DNA from: an uncultured Gammaproteobacteria bacterium
GTDB lineage: Bacteria; Patescibacteriota; Microgenomatia; Levybacterales; UBA12049
Length of the DNA stretch: 64,000 nt
Assembly: GCA_964520695.1 (NCBI GenBank)
Contig: CAZFNO010000001.1
Coordinates: 8,211-72,210 of the forward strand
Direction: 5' to 3'
Of the stretch, positions 3,439 to 64,000 are shown piece by piece. Every line of letters starts with the position of its first letter. Position 1 is the first letter of the stretch. A program made the position numbers and the translations under genes. Below the pieces are notes generated by a model, which saw nothing but the letters and a program-made list of their open reading frames with translations, was not told where the DNA came from and did not search any database.

Positions 3439-4278
3439 ATGAAAATATTTATAACTGGTGCGAATGGTCAATTAGGAAAAACTTTCTCTGAAATATATCC
3501 TAAAAAAAATTTATATCTTGGGACTAAAGAAAAATTGGATGTGACACGCAAAAGTCAGGTTTTAACGCAAATAAAAAAAAATAAACCTGAAATAATCTTG
3601 CATTTTGCTTCAATGACCAGGGGAGACGAATGTGCCAGAAATCCCCAAAAAGCATATGAGATAAACGTTAATGGCACAAAAAATATAGTTGAAGCCGCAA
3701 AAAAAAACAATTCAGTTTTATTATTTATAAGCACTAATGAGGTGTTTGATGGTAAGAAAAAAACCCCGTATACAGAAAGAGACAAACCTAATCCTATGAC
3801 GGTTATAGGTATGACAAAATACAATGCGGAAAAAATTATCCAGGAAAAACTAAGCGAGTACTTTATTATAAGAACGTCCTGGCTATATAGTAAATGGAGT
3901 CAGAACTTTCTTCAAACAGTTATTGCTAGGGCTAGGAAAAATAAAAAAATAAAGCTGGTCACGGATGAAATTAGTTCACCCACATATTCTTTGGATCTTT
4001 CATTAGCAATTAAAAAAATAATTTTAACGAAAAAATACGGAGTTTATCATCTTGTTAATACAGGGAAGGCTTCTAGGCTGGAGTTTGCACAAAAAGCATT
4101 CGAATTATCGGGCATTAATGGTACAGAAATAATTCCGATTAAACTCAGGAATTTTAATAGGCGATCAAAACCACCACTTTATACCCCTTTGGATAACAAG
4201 AAAGCAGGACAGTTGGGTATATCATTTCCTAGGTGGGAAAATGCATTAGAAGGATTTATTTCATCAGTTAGTATTTAA
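3439..4278 (+). CDS. dTDP-4-dehydrorhamnose reductase-like SDR (RmlD family)
   Basis: 'MKIFITGANGQLG' Rossmann motif, 'YxxxK' at 'TKYNAEK', length and layout match RmlD/RfbD. Confidence 0.6.
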   Translation: MKIFITGANGQLGKTFSEIYPKKNLYLGTKEKLDVTRKSQVLTQIKKNKPEIILHFASMTRGDECARNPQKAYEINVNGTKNIVEAAKKNNSVLLFISTNEVFDGKKKTPYTERDKPNPMTVIGMTKYNAEKIIQEKLSEYFIIRTSWLYSKWSQNFLQTVIARARKNKKIKLVTDEISSPTYSLDLSLAIKKIILTKKYGVYHLVNTGKASRLEFAQKAFELSGINGTEIIPIKLRNFNRRSKPPLYTPLDNKKAGQLGISFPRWENALEGFISSVSI

Positions 4279-5134: not shown

Positions 5135-6151
5135 ATGAAATCCAAAAATAAAAAACAATCGTCAATTTCTGTAATTATTCCAACTTATAATTCATCCCGC
5201 ACGATTGGTAAATGTCTTAAAAGTATAATAAATCAGGACTATCCAAAAAGTCTGATTGAAATAATTGTGGTTGATGGTGGATCGTCTGATAGCACTATTG
5301 ATATTGTAAAGAAGTTTGGAGCCAAAATAATAAAAGTTTCAAGTAGTCTTCAGAATGCCGAATATAACAAAGGAATAGGGATAAATTCGGCAAGAAATGA
5401 ACTATTACTGATGCTTGATCATGATAATATTCTGCCTCATAAAATGTGGTTACAAAAAATGGTTGAGCCATTGCAGGAAAACAAAAATGTTGTAGGTGTT
5501 GAGCCACTTCGTTTTCATTACGACAAAAACATGAAATTTATGGATAGATATTTTGCACTTCTTGGAGGTACTGATCCTGTTGCTTATTATCTTGGAAAAA
5601 ACTCTCACCTTTCATATATCTTTGACAAATATAATTTGTTGGGAAATGCAATTGATAAAGGAGAATATTATCTTGTTAGATTTTTTCCGAATAAGCTTCC
5701 TGCGATTGGTGGTAATGGAGCTTTAGTTAAAAGAAACATGATACTGCAATTCGCCAAATCGGATCCTGATAATTTTTTTCATATCGATGTTCACATGGAC
5801 CTTGTAAATAGGGGATTTAATACATACGCAATTGTTAAAGACACTATTATACATATGACGCATAGTCAATTTTTCTCTTTTTTGCGAAGAAGGATGTATT
5901 TTGTTGAGAAATATTATTATGAGGAATCCAAAAAGCGTCGTTATAGTATATATAATCCCAAAGAGGATAATTTAAAACTTCTGTATTATATTTTAATTTC
6001 TCTTACCATAATTAAGCCTCTTTTTGATTCTTTGAGAGGGTATCTTAAGTTAAGAGATAGTGCGTGGTTTGTACATCCTTTTATGTGTTTTTGTATGGTT
6101 TTTGCTTATGGAATACCTGTTATAAAATCAAGCATTTTTAAAAAAAGATGA
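5135..6151 (+). CDS. Family-2 glycosyltransferase
   Basis: 'ISVIIPTYNSSRTIGKCLKSIINQ', 'VVDGGSSD', 'MLDHDN'; start moved to the ATG at 5135 (ORF-track start 5096 overlaps the upstream gene). Confidence 0.8.
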   Translation: MKSKNKKQSSISVIIPTYNSSRTIGKCLKSIINQDYPKSLIEIIVVDGGSSDSTIDIVKKFGAKIIKVSSSLQNAEYNKGIGINSARNELLLMLDHDNILPHKMWLQKMVEPLQENKNVVGVEPLRFHYDKNMKFMDRYFALLGGTDPVAYYLGKNSHLSYIFDKYNLLGNAIDKGEYYLVRFFPNKLPAIGGNGALVKRNMILQFAKSDPDNFFHIDVHMDLVNRGFNTYAIVKDTIIHMTHSQFFSFLRRRMYFVEKYYYEESKKRRYSIYNPKEDNLKLLYYILISLTIIKPLFDSLRGYLKLRDSAWFVHPFMCFCMVFAYGIPVIKSSIFKKR

Positions 6152-7077
6152 ATATAAAAAATAAAAAAGTTTTAGTTACGGGCATAGATGGATTTGTAGG
6201 CAGTCATTTAAGCAATGCGTTAAATAGATTGGGGGCAGATGTTATTGGAATTTCAAAAATCAGAAAAGGAAAAGGCATATATAATATAGATATTGTTAAT
6301 TTTAAAAAGCTCAGTTATGTTTTTAAAAAAGAGAAAATAGAAATATGTTTTCATCTTGCCGGAGTCTCTCTTGTAGAGGAAGGACAAAAAAATCCTTACG
6401 ACACATTTAAAATTAATATTCTTGGAGCCCTTAATATTTTAGAGCTAACAAAAATCTATAATTTAGATCGAGTTATAGTAGCTTCTACAGCTCACGTATA
6501 TGGCGATAATATCCCTCCTTTTAAGGAAACTTACTATCCCCGTCCCTCAAGGCCATATGAAACATCAAAGGCAACAGTAGATTTAATCTCGCAAAGCTAT
6601 GCAGACACCTTCGATCTACCGGTACTGATTCCAAGATTTGTAAATATTTATGGACCAGGAGACGTTCATCAAACGCGACTTATACCAAAAACAATAAAAT
6701 CCGTACTTAAAGGAGAAAATCCTAAAATATGGGGAGGAGAAATAGTTAGGGACTATCTTTTTGTTGATGACGCAATTGATGGATATATAAAACTAGCAAC
6801 TGTTGATTTGAATAAAATTGGCAGGAACAGAATATTTAATTTTGGAAGCGGAAATAAGATATCAGTAATATCAATAGTGGAAAAAACAATTAAATTAAGC
6901 GGTAAACGATTAAAAATACGAAAGGAAAAGAATCAGCGGGAGCTTGAGATTGACCAACAATATGTATCTTTTGAGAAAGCAGATAAATTATTAGGATGGA
7001 GGCCTAAAGTAGGAATTGGTGAGGGTTTAAAGAAGACATTTAAATGGGCAAAAGAAATAGATACGGAAATAATTTAA
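6148..7077 (+). CDS. NAD-dependent sugar epimerase/dehydratase (extended SDR)
   Basis: 'VLVTGIDGFVGSHL' glycine-rich NAD motif, catalytic 'YETSK' (YxxxK). Confidence 0.7.
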   Translation: MNIKNKKVLVTGIDGFVGSHLSNALNRLGADVIGISKIRKGKGIYNIDIVNFKKLSYVFKKEKIEICFHLAGVSLVEEGQKNPYDTFKINILGALNILELTKIYNLDRVIVASTAHVYGDNIPPFKETYYPRPSRPYETSKATVDLISQSYADTFDLPVLIPRFVNIYGPGDVHQTRLIPKTIKSVLKGENPKIWGGEIVRDYLFVDDAIDGYIKLATVDLNKIGRNRIFNFGSGNKISVISIVEKTIKLSGKRLKIRKEKNQRELEIDQQYVSFEKADKLLGWRPKVGIGEGLKKTFKWAKEIDTEII

Positions 7078-7129: not shown

Positions 7130-8107
7130 ATGAGAAGAAATAAGACAGCCTTGGTTTTCGGCGCGGGTGGATTTATAGGTGGCCACTTAGTTAAAAAATT
7201 AAAAAAAGATGGATATTATGTTTTCGGAGTTGATCTTAAAAAACCTGAATACAGTGAAACTTTGGCAGACAAATTTATCCTTGGAGATCTGACAGAACAG
7301 AAATTTGTTAAAAAAGTTTTTAATAAAAAATATGACGAAGTTTACCAATTAGCAGCAGACATGGGAGGGGCAGGGTATATATTTACAGGCGACAATGATG
7401 CAAAAATTATGTATAGCTCCGCACTCATTAACTTAAATGTGCTTAATGAAATGGTAAATTCAAAATCAAAGAAAATTTTTTACTCCTCCTCTGCGTGTAT
7501 TTATCCTGAATACAATCAGCTAAATCCTGAAAATCCTAAGACGTCTGAGGACTCGGCCTATCCTGCCGAGCCTGATAGCGAATACGGCTGGGAAAAACTG
7601 TTTTCTGAGCGAATGTTTCTTGCTTATCACAGAAACTTTGGTTTAGAGGTAAGAATAGCCAGATTCCATAACATATTTGGACCTGAAGGAGTATGGAAAG
7701 GTGGACGGGAAAAATCGCCCGCAGCAATTTGCAGAAAAATTGCAGAAGCAAAAGAAGGAGGACAAATTGAGATATGGGGTGACGGTAAACAGACAAGATC
7801 ATATCTTTATATAGATGAGTGTCTTGAGGGAGTTAGAAGGTTTATGGACAGTAACTTTGCAGGCCCTGTGAATATAGGATCTGAAGAAATGGTAGCAATA
7901 AATGATTTAGCAAAAATGGTAATGAAAATAGCAAATAAGAAAGTGAAGCTAAAGCATGTAAAAGGTCCCCTTGGAGTACGAGGGCGTAAATCCGATAACG
8001 CTTTGATAAGAAAAAAGTTGGGTTGGGAGCCTAAAATTCCTCTTATTGACGGAATGACCAAGACCTATATTTGGATTGAGGCTCAAGTTAATAAGTCAGC
8101 AAGATAA
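7130..8107 (+). CDS. NAD-dependent sugar epimerase/dehydratase (extended SDR)
   Basis: 'ALVFGAGGFIGGHLV', catalytic 'YGWEK'; ATG at 7130 preferred over the ORF-track TTG at 7091. Confidence 0.7.
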   Translation: MRRNKTALVFGAGGFIGGHLVKKLKKDGYYVFGVDLKKPEYSETLADKFILGDLTEQKFVKKVFNKKYDEVYQLAADMGGAGYIFTGDNDAKIMYSSALINLNVLNEMVNSKSKKIFYSSSACIYPEYNQLNPENPKTSEDSAYPAEPDSEYGWEKLFSERMFLAYHRNFGLEVRIARFHNIFGPEGVWKGGREKSPAAICRKIAEAKEGGQIEIWGDGKQTRSYLYIDECLEGVRRFMDSNFAGPVNIGSEEMVAINDLAKMVMKIANKKVKLKHVKGPLGVRGRKSDNALIRKKLGWEPKIPLIDGMTKTYIWIEAQVNKSAR

Positions 8108-57744: not shown

Positions 57745-59043
57745 ATGAGTGAAGGTAGAATAATTACAGGAGTAGACATTGGAACTTCAAAAATCGTTAC
57801 AATAATTGCAAAGGTAGATGAGACGGTAAATGTTTTGGGCGTGTCAGAAGCCCCCTCAACGGGAATTAAAAAAGGACAGATTGTAAATATAGAAGAGGCA
57901 GTAGTTTCTGTTAACAATTCGATTGAAGCAGCAGAGAGAATGGCCGGGGTCTCGGTTTCCAGGATTGTCGCATCAATTGGAGGAGCAAGTATAGAATCAC
58001 AAAATTCAAGAGGAGTTGTTGCGGTAGCTCAGCCGGAAGGGGACGTTAATACGTCGGACGTTAATAGGGTAATTGATGCTGCTAAAGCGGTTTCACTTCC
58101 CTCAACCAGGGAAATAATCCACGTACTGCCTCGAAGCTTCACAGTTGACGGACAGGAAGGAATCAAAGACCCGGTAGGAATGACCGGGACAAGACTTGAG
58201 GTAGAAACCCATATTGTAACAGCAGGAAGTCCTGCCGTCAGAAATCTTGAAAAAGCATTTTCTCAAGTGGGAGTTGATGTTGAGGCACTAGTTTTTTCGG
58301 GGTATGCAAGCTCACTTTCTGCATTATCAGACACTGAAAAAGAATTAGGAGTTGTTCTTGTAGACATTGGGGCTGGAACTACCGATATTTCAATCTATAT
58401 TGACGGATCTGTAGCCTTCTCATCAGTACTTCCAATTGGAGCCCGCCATATTACAAATGATTTGGCAATTGGACTTCGAATTTCTCTTGAGTCATCTGAG
58501 AAAGTTAAGCTTTTTCTCTCCCGTCCAAAAAAGACGATCTTAAAACCCCAAGACAGGGAAGATGAGCCAAAAGAAAGAAGACTCTCAGATGAGCTGGATT
58601 TATCAAGTCTTGTACTTCCCGAGCAACTTTCTAAAGTTTCACAAAAAACATTAATTGACGGGATTATTAGACCCCGCTTAAACGAAATATTTACAATGGT
58701 AGGGCTTGAAATTAAAAAATCAGGATTCGGCGGACAAACTCCATCAGGCCTTGTAATAACAGGGGGAGGTGCCAAAACGGTTGGTGCTGTTGATTGCGCA
58801 AAAAGAATGCTTGCTATGCCCGTAAGAATTGGTGAGCCGCAAAATCTAAAAGGAATAATCGATGAAATTCAGGGAGCTTCATATTCAACTGTTGTAGGAC
58901 TCGCAATTTACGGAGCGTTAACCGGGGTCCAGTCAAGCTCTACATTTAAGTTTAACGTGAACCTTGGCGGACTTTCCGGTATTAAAATTCCCTCAAAACT
59001 TCCTAAAAAAATCATCGAATTTATAAAATCATTTATCCCTTAG
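57745..59043 (+). CDS. ftsA: Cell division protein FtsA
   Basis: 'ITGVDIGTSKI', 'VLVDIGAGTTD' actin-fold phosphate motifs. Confidence 0.9.
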   Translation: MSEGRIITGVDIGTSKIVTIIAKVDETVNVLGVSEAPSTGIKKGQIVNIEEAVVSVNNSIEAAERMAGVSVSRIVASIGGASIESQNSRGVVAVAQPEGDVNTSDVNRVIDAAKAVSLPSTREIIHVLPRSFTVDGQEGIKDPVGMTGTRLEVETHIVTAGSPAVRNLEKAFSQVGVDVEALVFSGYASSLSALSDTEKELGVVLVDIGAGTTDISIYIDGSVAFSSVLPIGARHITNDLAIGLRISLESSEKVKLFLSRPKKTILKPQDREDEPKERRLSDELDLSSLVLPEQLSKVSQKTLIDGIIRPRLNEIFTMVGLEIKKSGFGGQTPSGLVITGGGAKTVGAVDCAKRMLAMPVRIGEPQNLKGIIDEIQGASYSTVVGLAIYGALTGVQSSSTFKFNVNLGGLSGIKIPSKLPKKIIEFIKSFIP

Positions 59044-59134: not shown

Positions 59135-59143
59135 TTGTCAACT

Positions 59144-60286
59144 ATGCTCATAAAACCTCAGACGACTAATTTTGCAAAAATAAGAGTAATGGGTATAGGG
59201 GGCGGAGGAACAAATGCCCTAAACTCTATGATTGCGCAGTCATCCATTCAGGGCGTGGATTTCATAGCAGTTAATACAGATGCACAATCTCTTCTTCTTA
59301 ATCAGGCGGCAACAAAAGTTCAGATTGGAGAAGAACTGACAAAAGGACTGGGCTCTGGCGGAAATCCGGAAATTGGAGTACAAGCTGCTGAAGAGTCATA
59401 TGAAAAATTAAAAGATATTTTAGGAGGTACAGACATGGTTTTTCTGGCAGCCGGAATGGGAGGAGGGACAGGATCGGGTTCAACCCCTGTTATAGCAAGG
59501 GCAGCAAAAGAAGTTGGAGCATTAACAGTTGCTGTTGCAACAAAACCATTTACATTTGAGGGAACAAGAAGAATGGTAGTTGCCGAGGAAGCAATTGAAA
59601 ATTTAAAAGACAAAGTAGATACGCTGATTGTAATTCCAAATCAGAGAATTTTAGATGTAGTTGATAAAAAACTTTCACTTCTTGAAGCATTTAAAGTTGC
59701 GGATTCGGTGCTCACCCAGGGAGTTCAGGGAATCTCCGATCTTATAACAATGCCCGGACTTATCAATGTAGACTTTGCGGATGTCAGAACAATTATGCAA
59801 AACGCAGGCACCTCTCTTATGGGAATTGGAACAGGAGTGGGTGAGAATAGAGCCCAAGCAGCAGCGCGGGCTGCAATTGCCTCTCCTCTTCTTGAAATTA
59901 CAATAGAAGGGGCAAGGGGAGTTCTATTTAATGTAATAGGAGGACCGGATCTTACAATGAGCGAGGTGGATGATGCGGCAAAAATTATTGCACAAGCCGC
60001 AGACTCTGATGCAAATATAATTTTTGGTGCAACGATTGATGAGAGTATGAAAGATCAAATGAAAATAACGGTTATTGCAACAGGATTTGACAGCACCCGC
60101 CAGACATTACGCGAGTTTGTTGCTCCTCAGAGGTTTGATTCATCGCAGGCTTTTGGTGCTCAGCAGGAACAAAATACGGATTCACAGCAGGGTCAGGAAG
60201 AACCTCCTCCGCCCTCATCTCCACCTAGTGCTGAAGATGAGGAAGACGTCTGGGACATCCCCGCATTCCTAAGACAGAAGAATTAA
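59144..60286 (+). CDS. ftsZ: Cell division GTPase FtsZ
   Basis: 'GIGGGGTNA', 'GGTGSG' tubulin signature, conserved C-terminal peptide 'DIPAFLRQKN'; ATG at 59144. Confidence 0.95.
   Translation: MLIKPQTTNFAKIRVMGIGGGGTNALNSMIAQSSIQGVDFIAVNTDAQSLLLNQAATKVQIGEELTKGLGSGGNPEIGVQAAEESYEKLKDILGGTDMVFLAAGMGGGTGSGSTPVIARAAKEVGALTVAVATKPFTFEGTRRMVVAEEAIENLKDKVDTLIVIPNQRILDVVDKKLSLLEAFKVADSVLTQGVQGISDLITMPGLINVDFADVRTIMQNAGTSLMGIGTGVGENRAQAAARAAIASPLLEITIEGARGVLFNVIGGPDLTMSEVDDAAKIIAQAADSDANIIFGATIDESMKDQMKITVIATGFDSTRQTLREFVAPQRFDSSQAFGAQQEQNTDSQQGQEEPPPPSSPPSAEDEEDVWDIPAFLRQKN
60259..60286 (+). repeat. Copy A of ftsZ 3'-end repeat (native gene end, PAFLRQKN + TAA)
   Basis: CCCCGCATTCCTAAGACAGAAGAATTAA. 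Confidence 0.7.
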
Positions 60287-60293
60287 CCCCAGG

Positions 60294-60321
60294 TTGACAA
60301 TTCAGGACAAAGTGATATTAT
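60294..60321 (+). promoter_or_regulatory. Sigma70-like promoter TTGACA-16-TATTAT
   Basis: -10 ends 7 nt before the ATG at 60329, so a leaderless transcript is predicted. Confidence 0.55.
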
Positions 60322-60328
60322 TTGAGAT

Positions 60329-60886
60329 ATGGCAATAAGAGTTGAGAACATTGTCGCAAGACCTCCGTATCCAGAAAAACATCCACTTGCCCCAGTTGAA
60401 ATCAGCCCAGAATCAGCAAAGTTAGTTATGAGAGAAAGGGTTAAGAGGTATGCAGAGGGAATTCCTCAAGGATTTGTATCCAGAGCAAGAGGTCCAAGGA
60501 GATCATTGACCCTGATTAGTATAGATAGGGAGGGAGGATGGATGAATTCTACTGAAGCGGGTCATCCTGGATATGTTTTAGACGGAGTCCAGCTTCAAGA
60601 TTTGACAATTGAAGCCATGCAAGAGTTCGGATTAAACACAAATATTACTTATGAATCAGAACACAGTCTCAATCCGCATCCCAACGGAACAATAAGGGAG
60701 CGTACGGTATATCCAAGTCAGACAGTAAAAGGACTATCTTTTGAAAGATGGTTTGATTCTGTAGAGGCTACCGGAGAACCAGTATCCGTGGACTGGAGAT
60801 TGTTAGACACTCATGTAAATCCTGGTGAAGTGCTTATAGGAATGACACCTCCTAAGGAGGTTGTCGCAGTTCAACCTTCTAACTAA
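60329..60886 (+). CDS. Hypothetical protein (185 aa, no TM, unrecognised)
   Basis: Clean ORF with dedicated promoter; no known motif. Confidence 0.5.
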   Translation: MAIRVENIVARPPYPEKHPLAPVEISPESAKLVMRERVKRYAEGIPQGFVSRARGPRRSLTLISIDREGGWMNSTEAGHPGYVLDGVQLQDLTIEAMQEFGLNTNITYESEHSLNPHPNGTIRERTVYPSQTVKGLSFERWFDSVEATGEPVSVDWRLLDTHVNPGEVLIGMTPPKEVVAVQPSN

Positions 60887-60942
60887 AATAATTCCCTCTT
60901 GATATCAATTCTCAAAAAGTTTATATTTTGCCTAGGTGTTTT

Positions 60943-60992
60943 TAGTCCTTCGGCCTTACTCCCTCCAGAGGCGGGCAAGCAGGATAAAACAG
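60943..60992 (+). repeat. GC-rich conserved element, copy 1 (TAGTCCTTCGGCCTTACTCCCTCCAGAGGCGGGCAAGCAGGATAAAACAGG)
   Basis: Shares ~40 nt with 63276..63320, differing mainly by small indels. Confidence 0.6.
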
Positions 60993-60993
60993 G

Positions 60994-61019
60994 CCGCATT
61001 TCTCAGGCAGAAGAATTAG
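60994..61019 (+). repeat. Copy B of ftsZ 3'-end repeat (AAFLRQKN + TAG)
   Basis: CCGCATTTCTCAGGCAGAAGAATTAG; keeps reading frame and stop. Confidence 0.65.
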
Positions 61020-61020
61020 A

Positions 61021-61048
61021 TTGACAATTCAGGAACTACTTGTATAAT
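61021..61048 (+). promoter_or_regulatory. Sigma70-like promoter TTGACA-16-TATAAT
   Basis: TTGACAATTCAGGA is identical over 14 nt to the promoter at 60294; -10 ends 7 nt before the ATG at 61056. Confidence 0.55.
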
Positions 61049-61055
61049 TCTTACC

Positions 61056-61727
61056 ATGACTTTGGAACATGAACTAAGAACTGATTTTGGTGATCCACTC
61101 TCGGAACAACTAAGTCCTTTAGCCGCAGCAGAAGAATTTACGAGAATTTGTGAGATGCTTGATGAAAGACATATCTCATCGTTTCAGGCAGAGGAGGATT
61201 ATTGGGAATCCGGTAAAAGAATATTTGCAGGAGATCCTACAAAAAGACTTGGTGAATTATTATCTCAGTATTATGCCGGTACTCCAACCGCAAGAAAACG
61301 TTTATTGACGGAAGGATTCATAAAACACGGATATAATATGGGGGACGTGGTAAGTGATATTCCCTTTGGAAATTGGCCCGGAGACCTTGGAATGGATATT
61401 GAAAACGGAAGTGCGGGAGTATTTGAGAGGGAGGGAGCGCGGAAAATAGAAAGAACAGAGCTTCTGTTCTGGCTTCCTATTGAGATTGATTTTGATCTAG
61501 CAGGTATGATGGGAAGTTTGTCCGGTGATCCCAAAAAATCAATAGAGGCGTTTTTACAACAAATAGAAGAGTATGAAAAGGTATTCGGAGAGCCTTATGA
61601 CAGCCCCAGAGAAGAAGATACCGAGCATGAAAGGGTAGAAGCTGAGAAAGCAAAAGCAACAATACAGAGGCTTAAAAAAATTTTAGAAAGATTGGGACCT
61701 TCGAGTAATACAAGACTTGATAATTAA
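61056..61727 (+). CDS. Hypothetical acidic protein (223 aa)
   Basis: Clean ORF, own promoter, no recognisable domain. Confidence 0.5.
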   Translation: MTLEHELRTDFGDPLSEQLSPLAAAEEFTRICEMLDERHISSFQAEEDYWESGKRIFAGDPTKRLGELLSQYYAGTPTARKRLLTEGFIKHGYNMGDVVSDIPFGNWPGDLGMDIENGSAGVFEREGARKIERTELLFWLPIEIDFDLAGMMGSLSGDPKKSIEAFLQQIEEYEKVFGEPYDSPREEDTEHERVEAEKAKATIQRLKKILERLGPSSNTRLDN

Positions 61728-61760
61728 TTCCCCTGGCTCTATTCAAAGAGTGATCAATAG

Positions 61761-61787
61761 CCCGCATTCCTAAGGCAGAAGAATTAA
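61761..61787 (+). repeat. Copy C of ftsZ 3'-end repeat (stop-PAFLRQKN-TAA)
   Basis: CCCGCATTCCTAAGGCAGAAGAATTAA, 26/27 identical to copy A; its TTAA also provides the stop of the antisense gene 61784..62014. Confidence 0.65.
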
Positions 61788-62014
61788 ATTGTACTATAAC
61801 CCCTAACGTGGAGAATGTCGTTCTTGCTGACCCTGCGGACATCAGAAAATTTAAGAGTTATTAATGCAACAGTTTTACCTGTTGCTGTAACAAATTCTAC
61901 CTCAATTGTCTTACCATCTTCATATGCATTTACAACTGCTCCCATATCTCCAGCTCTGAGGCCGTGTTCAGGAATGTCGCGCTTAAGTATGACTGTTTCT
62001 AATTCTTCAAACAT
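61784..62014 (-). CDS. DUF4926-like small protein (antitoxin-like partner)
   Basis: 'VILKRDIPEHGLRAGDMGAVVNAYEDGKTIEVEF' resembles the DUF4926 core; start taken at the internal ATG (62014). Confidence 0.45.
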   Translation of the reverse strand: MFEELETVILKRDIPEHGLRAGDMGAVVNAYEDGKTIEVEFVTATGKTVALITLKFSDVRRVSKNDILHVRGYSTI

Positions 62015-62021
62015 ACGCTTA

Positions 62022-62297
62022 TTATAGAGGATAAGCCGTGATAAATCTAGGGCTACCCTCATCTTTCTTTACAAACCAAACAGTGTTTATTTTAACTTTC
62101 TTACCGCTTGGTGATTTTATTATTCCGTCTAACACGTAATTTGTACCATAAGGCAATTTTCTAGATTCTTTTATTTCATTTGATTGGGCGATTGTTATGA
62201 ATGATTTAATCAAAATATCTATGTTGTTATTATTAAAACCAAGTTTTCGAAAAAACTTCGCTTTAGATCTACCGACTATGTGTGTTTCTGAAAGCAA
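62022..62297 (-). CDS. DUF6883-like small protein (toxin-like partner)
   Basis: 'GRSKAKFFRKLGF' and C-terminal 'VWFVKKDEGSPRFITAYPL' resemble the DUF6883 family; TTG start, possibly N-terminally truncated. Confidence 0.45.
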   Translation of the reverse strand: MLSETHIVGRSKAKFFRKLGFNNNNIDILIKSFITIAQSNEIKESRKLPYGTNYVLDGIIKSPSGKKVKINTVWFVKKDEGSPRFITAYPL

Positions 62298-62356
62298 ATA
62301 ATTAGTTTAGCCCGCCAAATCAATCTAAATTATCCTTTTATTTTAATCCTTTAAGG

Positions 62357-62384
62357 TTGACAATATTTAATCCTGTAGTATAAT
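62357..62384 (+). promoter_or_regulatory. Sigma70-like promoter TTGACA-16-TATAAT
   Basis: -10 ends 6 nt before the ATG at 62391 (leaderless). Confidence 0.55.
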
Positions 62385-62390
62385 TCGTGC

Positions 62391-63194
62391 ATGGCTGGCT
62401 GGCTTGAAAGAAATATTAATAGAATAAAAGATCGAGAGAGGGAACTCGAAGAAGAAAGAATCAGAAAACAAAAAGAAGAATTAAGACTACATCAGGAGCA
62501 AGAACAAATTAGGATCGATGAAACATCGAAGGGAAATAGAAGACTTTTAGAGACGTTAGAGAGACTAAATGCAAGGGGATGTTTGGAAGATATAAATACT
62601 TTAACATGGGATGGTGTTGGTACTATTACCATCGATGATCTATTGGCGAATAGAGGGCGAATGGGCATTGAACTTTCTTTTGAATATCCGAGGTATTCTA
62701 CTTATTATTCTCCTGCCTCTGGAATCTTTGATAGCTATAGATCAGCGTCAACTTCTCATTCCGTTAAGTGGGTTTCAACCATGATTAGAGTAGGCCTTGT
62801 TTTAACATTATTAGAAGTACCAGCATTAGAATTGGAAGCCACTTACGGATTTGATACCGACTCTTATGGACAAGCAAAACCGCAATTTAGAGAGCATGTA
62901 TCTGATGTTTTAGTTGATTCGCCAGAATCAGCAAAAGTTGTTATAGAAGATTTCTTAGGAAAAGATATATTAAGACGACAAAGATCCGAATCGTTTCCAC
63001 TTCAACTTGCCAAAAAGGGTTTTGTAGGAATTAATAAAGGTTTACTAACTGGTAGTCCTGGGTGGGAGGAGCGCGTACAACGCGTACAAAGCTTTATAGA
63101 TTCTTCCCCAATTGGGACTTACACTGCGCCTGAGCCAGAATGGATGAGAACACACACTGCAGCACCATATCGTGAGTCTCCTGACAATTGGTAA
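62391..63194 (+). CDS. Hypothetical protein with N-terminal coiled coil (267 aa)
   Basis: 'RIKDRERELEEERIRKQKEELRLHQEQEQIR' heptad-like charged segment, then a globular domain; unrecognised. Confidence 0.5.
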   Translation: MAGWLERNINRIKDRERELEEERIRKQKEELRLHQEQEQIRIDETSKGNRRLLETLERLNARGCLEDINTLTWDGVGTITIDDLLANRGRMGIELSFEYPRYSTYYSPASGIFDSYRSASTSHSVKWVSTMIRVGLVLTLLEVPALELEATYGFDTDSYGQAKPQFREHVSDVLVDSPESAKVVIEDFLGKDILRRQRSESFPLQLAKKGFVGINKGLLTGSPGWEERVQRVQSFIDSSPIGTYTAPEPEWMRTHTAAPYRESPDNW

Positions 63195-63275
63195 TCCAGT
63201 ATTTCTAGTCATAAATATGATATATTCTAATCAGATGTTTTTAGTATGAATTGAAGCTAGAAATAATCTCTGACT

Positions 63276-63320
63276 TAGTCCGTTCGGCAAGCTCTCTCCA
63301 GAGGCGGGCAGGATAAAACA
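63276..63320 (+). repeat. GC-rich conserved element, copy 2 (TAGTCCGTTCGGCAAGCTCTCTCCAGAGGCGGGCAGGATAAAACA)
   Basis: Matches 60943..60992; here fused directly to a promoter with no ftsZ-tail copy. Confidence 0.6.
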
Positions 63321-63329
63321 TTCCCCATA

Positions 63330-63357
63330 TTGACAAATTGATATAGTTTGATATAAT
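63330..63357 (+). promoter_or_regulatory. Sigma70-like promoter TTGACA-16-TATAAT
   Basis: 20-nt leader containing AGGAA before the ATG at 63378. Confidence 0.5.
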
Positions 63358-63377
63358 CCACGCTTAGGAATAAACAT

Positions 63378-64000
63378 ATGAATGAAATACCAGGTCAGCC
63401 ACCAAAAGACGAACCAAAGGCAGTTCAAATGCCTACTGGAGACGAAATGCTACGAAGGCTTCAAGCTACTGGTCTTTATGGATTAACTCCACAGACAGAT
63501 GCTTTTTATGATCAGTTTATGAAATATTCTGCAGGCCATCAACTTAATGGAATGGGTCTCACTAATACTTGGGAACTTGCAAGTTATGATACTTTAAGAC
63601 AGTATCCCCCAGCTCTGAGAGCAGTAATCGGTGCTGGATTTGACAGAGTAATTGATGCAATAACTCCTGATGAAAAGGTGGCAGATGATGCAAAACAATT
63701 TAGAAAAAAAGTACTTGAGGAATTAGCAAGAAAAGCTAAAGAAAGTGAACCCACACCAGAGGAGCTTGGTCCAGCAGATTCGCTAACTGATTTAGCAAGA
63801 TATTCACAAGCCCGTAGAATAGCAGATATCGTGTTTGAGTATGCCAGTGGCGACGTTGGTGTTTCATTTGATTATATATGGATGCAGGATAGAAGAGGAG
63901 AAAGTCCAAATCCATACTACAAACAAACCCATAGAGGTTTTTTCTTAGAAGGATATTATGGACAAATAAGTACACTATGGACTCCATGGGGAGAATATGG
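63378..64000 (+). CDS. Hypothetical protein, 5' part only (runs off the window; not in the ORF track)
   Basis: Manual translation from the ATG at 63378 ('MNEIPGQPPKDEPKAVQMPTGDEML...') gives 207 sense codons with no stop to position 64000. Confidence 0.45.
   Translation, partial: MNEIPGQPPKDEPKAVQMPTGDEMLRRLQATGLYGLTPQTDAFYDQFMKYSAGHQLNGMGLTNTWELASYDTLRQYPPALRAVIGAGFDRVIDAITPDEKVADDAKQFRKKVLEELARKAKESEPTPEELGPADSLTDLARYSQARRIADIVFEYASGDVGVSFDYIWMQDRRGESPNPYYKQTHRGFFLEGYYGQISTLWTPWGEY

Follow-up and report, generated by a model that had tools for sequence, protein, structure and literature searches.

The window analysed here (the whole 64-kb stretch of DNA, GC content 0.35) is an ordinary chromosomal stretch of a candidate phyla radiation (CPR)/Microgenomates-like bacterium. 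The subject of this report is a pair of small minus-strand genes located downstream of the cell division gene ftsZ: a 5'-truncated member of the DUF6883 family, the presumed toxin, and an intact member of the DUF4926 family, the presumed immunity protein or antitoxin. A preliminary description of the locus had pointed to two small open reading frames (ORFs) lying 7 nt apart on the minus strand, between the second and third genes of an array of single genes 3' of ftsZ, and opposite in strand to everything around them. This arrangement was confirmed, with the start of the second ORF corrected to 62014. The pair sits between the plus-strand genes at 61056-61727 and 62391-63194, in antisense orientation to the array genes as well as to ftsA and ftsZ. 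The features of the pair and its junctions are as follows.

62022-62297, minus strand: 5'-truncated DUF6883 ORF with a TTG start, 91 aa, equivalent to residues 20-110 of the 110-aa family; its stop codon is TAA (62024-62022, minus strand)
62015-62021, minus strand: spacer of 7 nt (TAAGCGT) that separates the stop of the toxin from the ATG of DUF4926
61784-62014, minus strand: intact DUF4926 gene, ATG at 62014, 76 aa (MFEELE...), presumed immunity/antitoxin
62021-62026, minus strand: perfect TATAAT hexamer, located 6 nt before the ATG of DUF4926
62298-62309, minus strand: truncation junction, where an in-frame TAA (62307-62309) comes before three leftover codons of the same frame (T-N-Y)
62308-62356, no strand: 49-nt filler that separates the truncated toxin from the array gene 3 promoter, in place of the native toxin promoter and 5' end
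61756-61791, plus strand: ftsZ-tail copy C, a member of a repeat family, encoding PAFLRQKN and a stop codon at 61761-61787
61757-62307, minus strand: exchanged cassette block, consisting of the tail copy, DUF4926, and DUF6883 from about codon 14

A 92-aa ORF call (61784-62062, ATG at 62062) was rejected as the real DUF4926 gene, because homologs are 76-78 aa and the Pfam match begins at residue 20. No second copy of DUF6883 or DUF4926 was found within the 64-kb window. The GC content of the toxin-immunity block (61784-62297) is 0.348, compared with 0.39-0.43 for the neighboring array genes and 0.435 for ftsZ, and this lower value fits a separate origin of the block.

The family names had been proposed from the sequence, with searches of the Pfam models suggested as a check. 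Profile searches with hidden Markov models (HMM) gave matches well above the curated cut-offs for both proteins. The upstream ORF matched DUF6883 (PF21814) with an E-value of 3.6e-25 and 88.8 bits (gathering cut-off 27) at profile positions 16-108 of 110, and the downstream ORF matched DUF4926 (PF16277) with an E-value of 5.1e-19 and 67.9 bits (gathering cut-off 29.1) at profile positions 1-55 of 57. The DUF4926 protein is full-length in its domain, and its 76 aa are the norm of the family. The upstream ORF lacks the N-terminal segment and helix 1 of the complete ~110-aa DUF6883 domain. Its designation as a DUF6883 gene is therefore right for the family and wrong for the gene as a whole, since the match is confined to the profile positions given above, an in-frame TAA precedes the homologous part, and the only usable start codon is TTG. 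Both genes are 85-92% identical to annotated proteins of related genomes, and NCBIfam contained no match for the pair.

An August 2026 preprint (bioRxiv 10.64898/2026.08.28.747851) reclassified DUF6883 in silico as 'BECR-Tox3' and reported that DUF4926 is commonly located downstream of DUF6883, which was interpreted as a toxin-immunity organization. It also reported fusions of DUF6883 to Phage_Mu_F, and placed the active sites of colicin-like BECR toxins in the pre-alpha element and beta4. The window pair is like the pairs of the preprint in its families, its toxin-first order, and the position of DUF4926 immediately 3' on the same strand. It differs in that the toxin is 5'-truncated and promoter-less, and in that the pair lies antisense in an array of ftsZ-tail copies with its last stop codon inside the TTAA of a repeat; the preprint mentions neither truncation nor array embedding.

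The linkage of the two families was scanned in one genome per GTDB species, which yielded 75 loci with a DUF6883 relative (L012-L086) from CPR, Chloroflexota, Cyanobacteria, Gammaproteobacteria, Acidobacteriota, Desulfobacterota, Gemmatimonadota, and other phyla. In 68 of the 75 loci, the toxin was followed immediately by DUF4926 in the same orientation, typically with 10-43 nt between the matched domains. The DUF6883 family as a whole comprises 5,581 cluster representatives at E <= 1e-3. The toxin was frameshifted or truncated at 17 of the 75 loci (~23%), although some of these frameshifts may be assembly errors of metagenome-assembled genomes (MAGs). DUF4926 was still detected in 14 of the 17 damaged loci, which suggests that toxin decay with a persisting immunity gene is recurrent and fits frequent toxin loss with immunity retention across DUF6883 loci. 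We conclude that the two window genes form a genuine toxin/immunity pair, and that this pair is a further, degenerate example of a family for which an in silico description exists. The toxin-like and antitoxin-like roles of the preliminary description agree with this linkage, with the same call in the preprint, and with the predicted fold of a BECR ribonuclease (RNase).

For the fold of the toxin, an AlphaFold (AF2) model was made with a 30-sequence alignment for P0002, a full-length homolog 85% identical to the window toxin. The model had a predicted local distance difference test (pLDDT) score of 93.6, with helices at residues 13-20, 29-37, and 45-58 followed by a four-stranded sheet. This arrangement of N-terminal helices and a four-stranded antiparallel sheet is similar to that of solved BECR toxins. 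One of them, CdiA-CT of Klebsiella pneumoniae 342 (Kp342), is a tRNase cleaving the acceptor stem of tRNA-Ile, and its active site consists of a Lys-Tyr-Thr triad (K157, Y160, and T255) together with H170 and R252 (PMC9086364). The residues K15, Y19, H25, R103, and T106 of DUF6883 follow the same order as these active-site residues with similar spacing. They are highly conserved in 55 intact genomic DUF6883 copies (K15, 100%; Y19, 98%; H25, 100%; R103, 85%; T106, 98%), and K15 is invariant, together with only G39 and W93, among 117 DUF6883 representatives of at most 50% mutual identity. By equivalence to the Kp342 residues, we infer that these five residues are catalytic. Sequence and profile searches of the PDB with the 30- and 117-sequence alignments reached neither 6cp9 nor any other BECR toxin, and because of this the residue mapping to CdiA-CT Kp342 stays putative.

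The comparison with known systems showed several differences. No relationship at the sequence level was detected between DUF6883 and CdiA-CT/CdiI of K. pneumoniae 342 (PDB 6CP9). DUF6883 is a free-standing 110-aa protein, whereas the Kp342 toxin is the tip of the secreted CdiA and acts in contact-dependent inhibition. The structural similarity of DUF6883 to colicin D, BrnT (BrnTA), and RelE was much weaker, and the partners of these toxins are unrelated to DUF4926. A further match of the P0002 model was to minor capsid (MuF-like) proteins of phages, at their C-termini, with template modeling (TM) scores of 0.8-0.9 and 28% identity. The MuF-fused polymorphic toxins of temperate phages are thus alike in carrying a DUF6883-like domain at the C-terminus of a MuF-like protein, whereas the window toxin has neither a MuF domain nor a phage context.

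The model of DUF4926 (pLDDT 87) is a five-stranded SH3/KOW/Tudor-like barrel. It is unlike the larger CdiI-Kp342, which has about nine strands, and unlike the classical type II antitoxins it has no recognizable DNA-binding domain. Its last ~15 residues (window 61784-61830; DVRR.S.NDILHVRG...) contain the invariant R60, L68, and R71 and were modeled with a pLDDT of 45-75. Such a low-confidence yet conserved C-terminus is typical of a segment that would fold only on binding of its partner.

The truncation of the window toxin is evident from its length and from its DNA. DUF6883 homologs are nearly all 110 aa, compared with 91 aa for the window ORF, and a similarly small size was seen in just 3 of the 150 best representatives of the family. 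Two other genomes, L001 and L087, carry full-length cassettes in which an extended -10 promoter, TGnTATAAT (TGATATAAT or TGCTATAAT), lies 7-10 nt before a GTG start. In the alignments (BLAST), the homology of the window to these cassettes begins only at about codon 14 of the toxin, with its edge at ~62303-62307, and the filler (62308-62356) had no counterpart in L001 or L087. The window toxin keeps His25, Arg103, and Thr106 but loses Lys15, Tyr19, helix 1, and the ordered N-terminal segment, and with Lys15 and Tyr19 absent the set of putative catalytic residues is incomplete. No Shine-Dalgarno sequence was seen before the TTG at 62297. A promoter had been suggested on the minus strand at 62300-62340, but our scan upstream of the toxin found no minus-strand sigma-70-like site scoring 9/12 or more. 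Of promoters for the pair, only the TATAAT before DUF4926 remains in the window. The truncation junction was identical in four independent assemblies (L007, L008, L009, and L011) and is therefore not an assembly artifact.

The immunity gene shows a different state. The dN/dS ratio (nonsynonymous to synonymous divergence) against L001 was 0.09 for DUF4926 and 0.30 for the toxin. The TATAAT at 62021-62026 is conserved in L001 and L087, with a poor match to a -35 element. Its spacing to the ATG resembles the layout of the apparently leaderless genes of the surrounding array (TATAAT, 6-8 nt, ATG), and this resemblance suggests that DUF4926 may be expressed alone. We hypothesize that this hexamer is a candidate internal promoter that would give a leaderless transcript for the immunity gene alone.

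We compared the block with its closest relatives to trace its history. The block 61757-62307 was 88.7% identical at the DNA level to L001 (BLAST), compared with 80% for ftsZ and ~70% for ftsA, murG, and ftsW. The synonymous divergence (dS) against L001 was 0.31 for the toxin and 0.39 for the immunity gene, 3-5 times lower than for ftsZ (1.12), ftsA (1.81), and murG (1.46), which shows that the block was exchanged after the divergence of the hosts. The neighborhoods of the pair also differ. In the window it follows the second array gene and precedes the 267-aa array gene 3. In L001, L012, and L101 (L001 and L012 being MAGs labeled Levybacteria/Woesebacteria), the pair is likewise antisense, located after the first array gene (NYN) 3' of ftsZ and before a 166-aa gene. 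In L087 it lies next to a homolog of window array gene 1 among glycosyltransferase genes, with no ftsZ within ~8 kb upstream; the contig ends 1.8 kb beyond the pair on the other side. On either side of the L087 pair lies a direct repeat of ~120 nt with a tail copy ...GAAGAATTAA at its end. This context suggests either that cassettes take the tail sequence along when they move elsewhere or that arrays can be relocated. The region 1590-3260 of L087 holds both the toxin-immunity cassette and the homolog of window array gene 1, which is 75% identical with its promoter included.

The junction of the cassette is precise. The stop codon of DUF4926 (61786-61784, minus strand) overlaps the TTAA at 61784-61787 that ends tail copy C, and the same overlap is present in L001/L012 and L087. 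The junction sequence, ...GAAGAATTAA followed directly by ATT..., is common to the window, L001/L012, and L087, with different flanking genes. The earlier proposal that this stop codon is built from the TTAA of the ftsZ-tail copy is thus real and extends to two other genomes. The idea that the pair is mobile cargo also gained support from the three neighborhoods and from dS values of 0.31-0.39 against 1.1-1.8 for the flanking core genes. Judged from these sequence comparisons, the pair with its tail copy, a block of ~0.55-0.75 kb, is a horizontally exchanged cassette found in three genomes with differing neighbors. Where the pair has more remote relatives, in other genomes inside and outside CPR, no tail copies lie nearby. 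In a metagenome scan, an 18-mer taken from the 3' end of DUF4926 recovered only the L001-type genome once more, together with 10 unrelated chance matches, and no new contexts.

The unusual part of the neighborhood is the array of ftsZ tails, and the pair itself is ordinary. The window contains glycosyltransferase genes, a tRNA synthetase gene, and the dcw cluster from mraZ/mraW to ftsA and ftsZ, all on the plus strand, with the array following ftsZ.

57745-59043, plus strand: ftsA, dcw cluster
59135-60286, plus strand: ftsZ, end of the dcw cluster
60329-60886, plus strand: array gene 1
61056-61727, plus strand: array gene 2
62391-63194, plus strand: array gene 3, product of 267 aa
from 63378, plus strand: array gene 4
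60255-60290, 60988-61023, and 61756-61791: ftsZ-tail copies in the window, with a partial fourth at ~63275-63330
60294-60321, 61021-61048, 62357-62384, and 63330-63357, plus strand: array promoters, perfect or near-perfect TTGACA-N16-TATAAT

A copy of the ftsZ 3' tail lies in front of each of the first three promoters. The -10 hexamer ends 6-8 nt before the ATG in array genes 1-3, which implies leaderless mRNAs for these genes, and gene 4 has a longer leader with an AGGA motif. The repeated tail copies still encode the C-terminal peptide of FtsZ, (D)IPAFLRQKN followed by the stop codon, by way of synonymous codon changes. In L001, 7 of 9 codons differ between the real ftsZ tail and the next copy, all synonymously; of the changes in window copy B relative to the real tail, four are synonymous and one is nonsynonymous. 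Each tail copy seems once to have been a working end of ftsZ. This coding competence suggests repeated insertion at the ftsZ stop region, like that of elements at the 3' ends of tRNA genes.

The array of the relative is longer. L001 contains tail copies at 7467-7493, 7419-7445, 6568-6594, 5223-5249, 3699-3725, 2537-2563, 1658-1684, and 742-768, and the array of L001/L101 (L101 967-8622) spans ~7.9 kb with at least nine tail copies and ~10 cassettes. Conflict-type genes are frequent in its cargo, which includes two NYN-domain proteins, a MazE-like and Fic/Doc pair, a second antisense Fic gene, a TylF-type methyltransferase, and proteins of unknown function; the functions of the L101 ORFs beyond L001 were judged by eye from their translations. 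An amidase-like gene and a gene for a PMT-like membrane glycosyltransferase form its distal flank. The DUF6883/DUF4926 pair is the sole cassette present in all three arrays examined, is inverted, and has its own promoter in the relatives.

Vibrio superintegrons and similar sedentary chromosomal integrons carry toxin-antitoxin cassettes. The array is like them in that a toxin-antitoxin pair with its own promoter is one unit among unrelated single-gene cassettes, that a repeated junction sequence lies between cassettes, and that the same cassette has different neighbors in different genomes. It is unlike an integron in that each repeat copies the 3' end of ftsZ in coding-competent form and is not an attC, and that consensus promoters are present in the other cassettes as well. 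Tail copies B and C with their flanks folded no better than shuffled sequences in a search for an attC-like hairpin (z -1.0 to +1.1). No recombinase was found among nine Pfam-scanned ORFs of the window, whose array runs off the window end, and no recombinase- or integrase-like ORF was recognized by eye, without a Pfam scan, among the ORFs listed for the L101 array and its distal flank. With no hairpin exceeding the shuffles and no recombinase seen among the ORFs inspected, the mobility of the cassette is no ground for calling the array an integron. A literature search for arrays 3' of ftsZ found nothing relevant. It is possible, and we put it forward tentatively, that the pair is one cassette of an undescribed integron-like, attC-less array growing at the ftsZ 3' end in Microgenomates (CPR). 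The units of such an array would end in tail copies, each of them the former working end of ftsZ once a site-specific insertion had occurred in or close to the TTAA stop region; a full-length pair could stabilize it in the manner of the toxin-antitoxin cassettes of Vibrio superintegrons, and the window would represent a later stage, with the toxin disarmed by rearrangement at a cassette boundary.

Several short sequences in and between the cassettes should also be mentioned. The inter-cassette spacers (window 60887-60990 and 63221-63288; L001 ~5350-5215, 3900-3700, 1860-1660, and 860-745) share the conserved block ctcaaaaagtctatatttt..taggtgtttttagtccttcggcc...aggataaa... Short spacer motifs such as tccttcgNNNNNNgctcaggac resemble piled-up decayed fragments of the ftsZ tail (gccttccttcgcc), with no Rfam match and no significant fold. 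Rfam gave no match at gathering thresholds in the window, L001, or L087, nor in permissive mode in 60200-64000. Array genes 1 and 3 share 23 nt at 87% identity (60407-60429 and 62922-62944), encoding SPESAK(L/V)V; this stretch may be a shared motif or a trace of recombination among otherwise unrelated cassette genes without a family match.

The observations on the pair are probably best explained by a small mobile cassette carrying a toxin-immunity module, of which the window holds a relic of the toxin and an orphan immunity gene. The full-length DUF6883 protein would be a BECR-fold ribonuclease of the colicin D/CdiA-CT(Kp342) type, most likely cleaving tRNA or other RNA, with the Lys15-Tyr19-Thr106 set, His25, and Arg103 as the predicted catalytic residues. 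The SH3-like barrel of DUF4926 is presumed to bind and block the toxin, and its conserved unstructured C-terminal segment may be the blocking part. The cassette is precisely joined to the TTAA of an ftsZ 3' tail copy and has undergone horizontal transfer between Microgenomates (CPR) genomes. A rearrangement in the window would then have removed the extended -10 promoter, the GTG start, and the first 13-19 codons of the toxin. The remaining promoter-less TTG ORF without Lys15 and Tyr19 is most likely catalytically dead or unexpressed. The intact DUF4926 gene is under purifying selection and may be transcribed alone. It may have been kept as an orphan immunity gene that protects, for instance, against DUF6883 toxins that are incoming or carried by phages.

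Some points weigh against a disarmed toxin. The protein modeled was the full-length homolog and not the truncated window protein, and a literature search found no experimental work on any DUF6883 or DUF4926 protein. The truncated ORF is still open for 91 codons with His25, Lys31, Lys33, Arg103, Thr106, and a possible TTG start. Its dN/dS against L001 is below 1, and the branch-wise counts with L087 as the outgroup (7 synonymous and 10 nonsynonymous changes for the window; 4 and 5 for L001) show no clear relaxation, at small numbers. A reading in line with the preliminary description, which suggested that the pair may stabilize the island, is that of a fully working addiction module, in which the 91-aa TTG-start protein would be active and the pair would stabilize the array downstream of ftsZ. 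The intact, frameshift-free ORF, the retention of most conserved core residues, the dN/dS of 0.30, and the absence of significant branch-specific relaxation agree with that reading, as does the full-length toxin of L001/L101 inside the same kind of array, where stabilization is plausible. We nevertheless consider it unlikely for the window, where the copy is without Tyr19, helix 1, and the Lys15 that is invariant in 117 diverse members, where the native promoter and start codon are gone with neither a sigma-70-like promoter nor a Shine-Dalgarno sequence seen before the TTG, and where the toxin is of a length matched by so few family representatives. Stabilization of the island by the pair cannot be upheld in this genome, given that promoter, start codon, and ~19 N-terminal residues of the toxin are gone, among them the invariant putative catalytic lysine.

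That the pair is a device directed mainly against phages or competitors, as opposed to a self-addiction module, is less likely still. The toxin would then serve as an RNase of abortive infection, or a stand-alone DUF4926 would give immunity to phage-delivered DUF6883 (MuF fusions), the window being at the immunity-only stage. The DUF6883 fold at the C-termini of phage minor capsid (MuF-like) proteins, the Phage_Mu_F fusions of the preprint, the strong purifying selection on DUF4926 while the toxin is truncated, and the other conflict genes in the relative's array (NYN, the MazE-like/Fic pair, and the methyltransferase) speak for such a role. In PADLOC the toxin was without a match, and the best match of DUF4926 (HEC-02B, E 0.035) was not significant; PHROGs likewise gave none for the toxin and a non-significant best match for DUF4926 (E 0.0034) to a family of unknown function. 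A pattern scan of IMG/VR confirmed no DUF6883 relative. The reading overlaps with the explanation by a mobile cassette with an orphan immunity gene and is compatible with it. That both ORFs are short, that the first starts with TTG, and that the genome is AT-rich (GC 0.35) could point to chance or non-functional reading frames, or the truncation could be an assembly artifact. This is hardly credible and was refuted by the Pfam matches (HMM E-values of 1e-19 to 1e-25), by the identity of 85-92% to annotated proteins of related genomes, by the evident purifying selection, and by the same junction in four independent assemblies.

The pair alone adds little, being a degenerate example of a widespread family (5,581 cluster representatives) already recognized in silico. 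Under the explanation by a mobile cassette, the window toxin is a natural 'disarmed' allele that points to the N-terminal helix with Lys15 and Tyr19 as the candidate part for catalysis, and DUF4926 is here an immunity gene surviving without its toxin. The same block occurs with the same TTAA junction in three neighborhoods, and its history is younger than that of the host genes. This is direct evidence for the movement of array units as cassettes. For the construction of the surrounding array, the toxin-immunity pair is thus the best marker.

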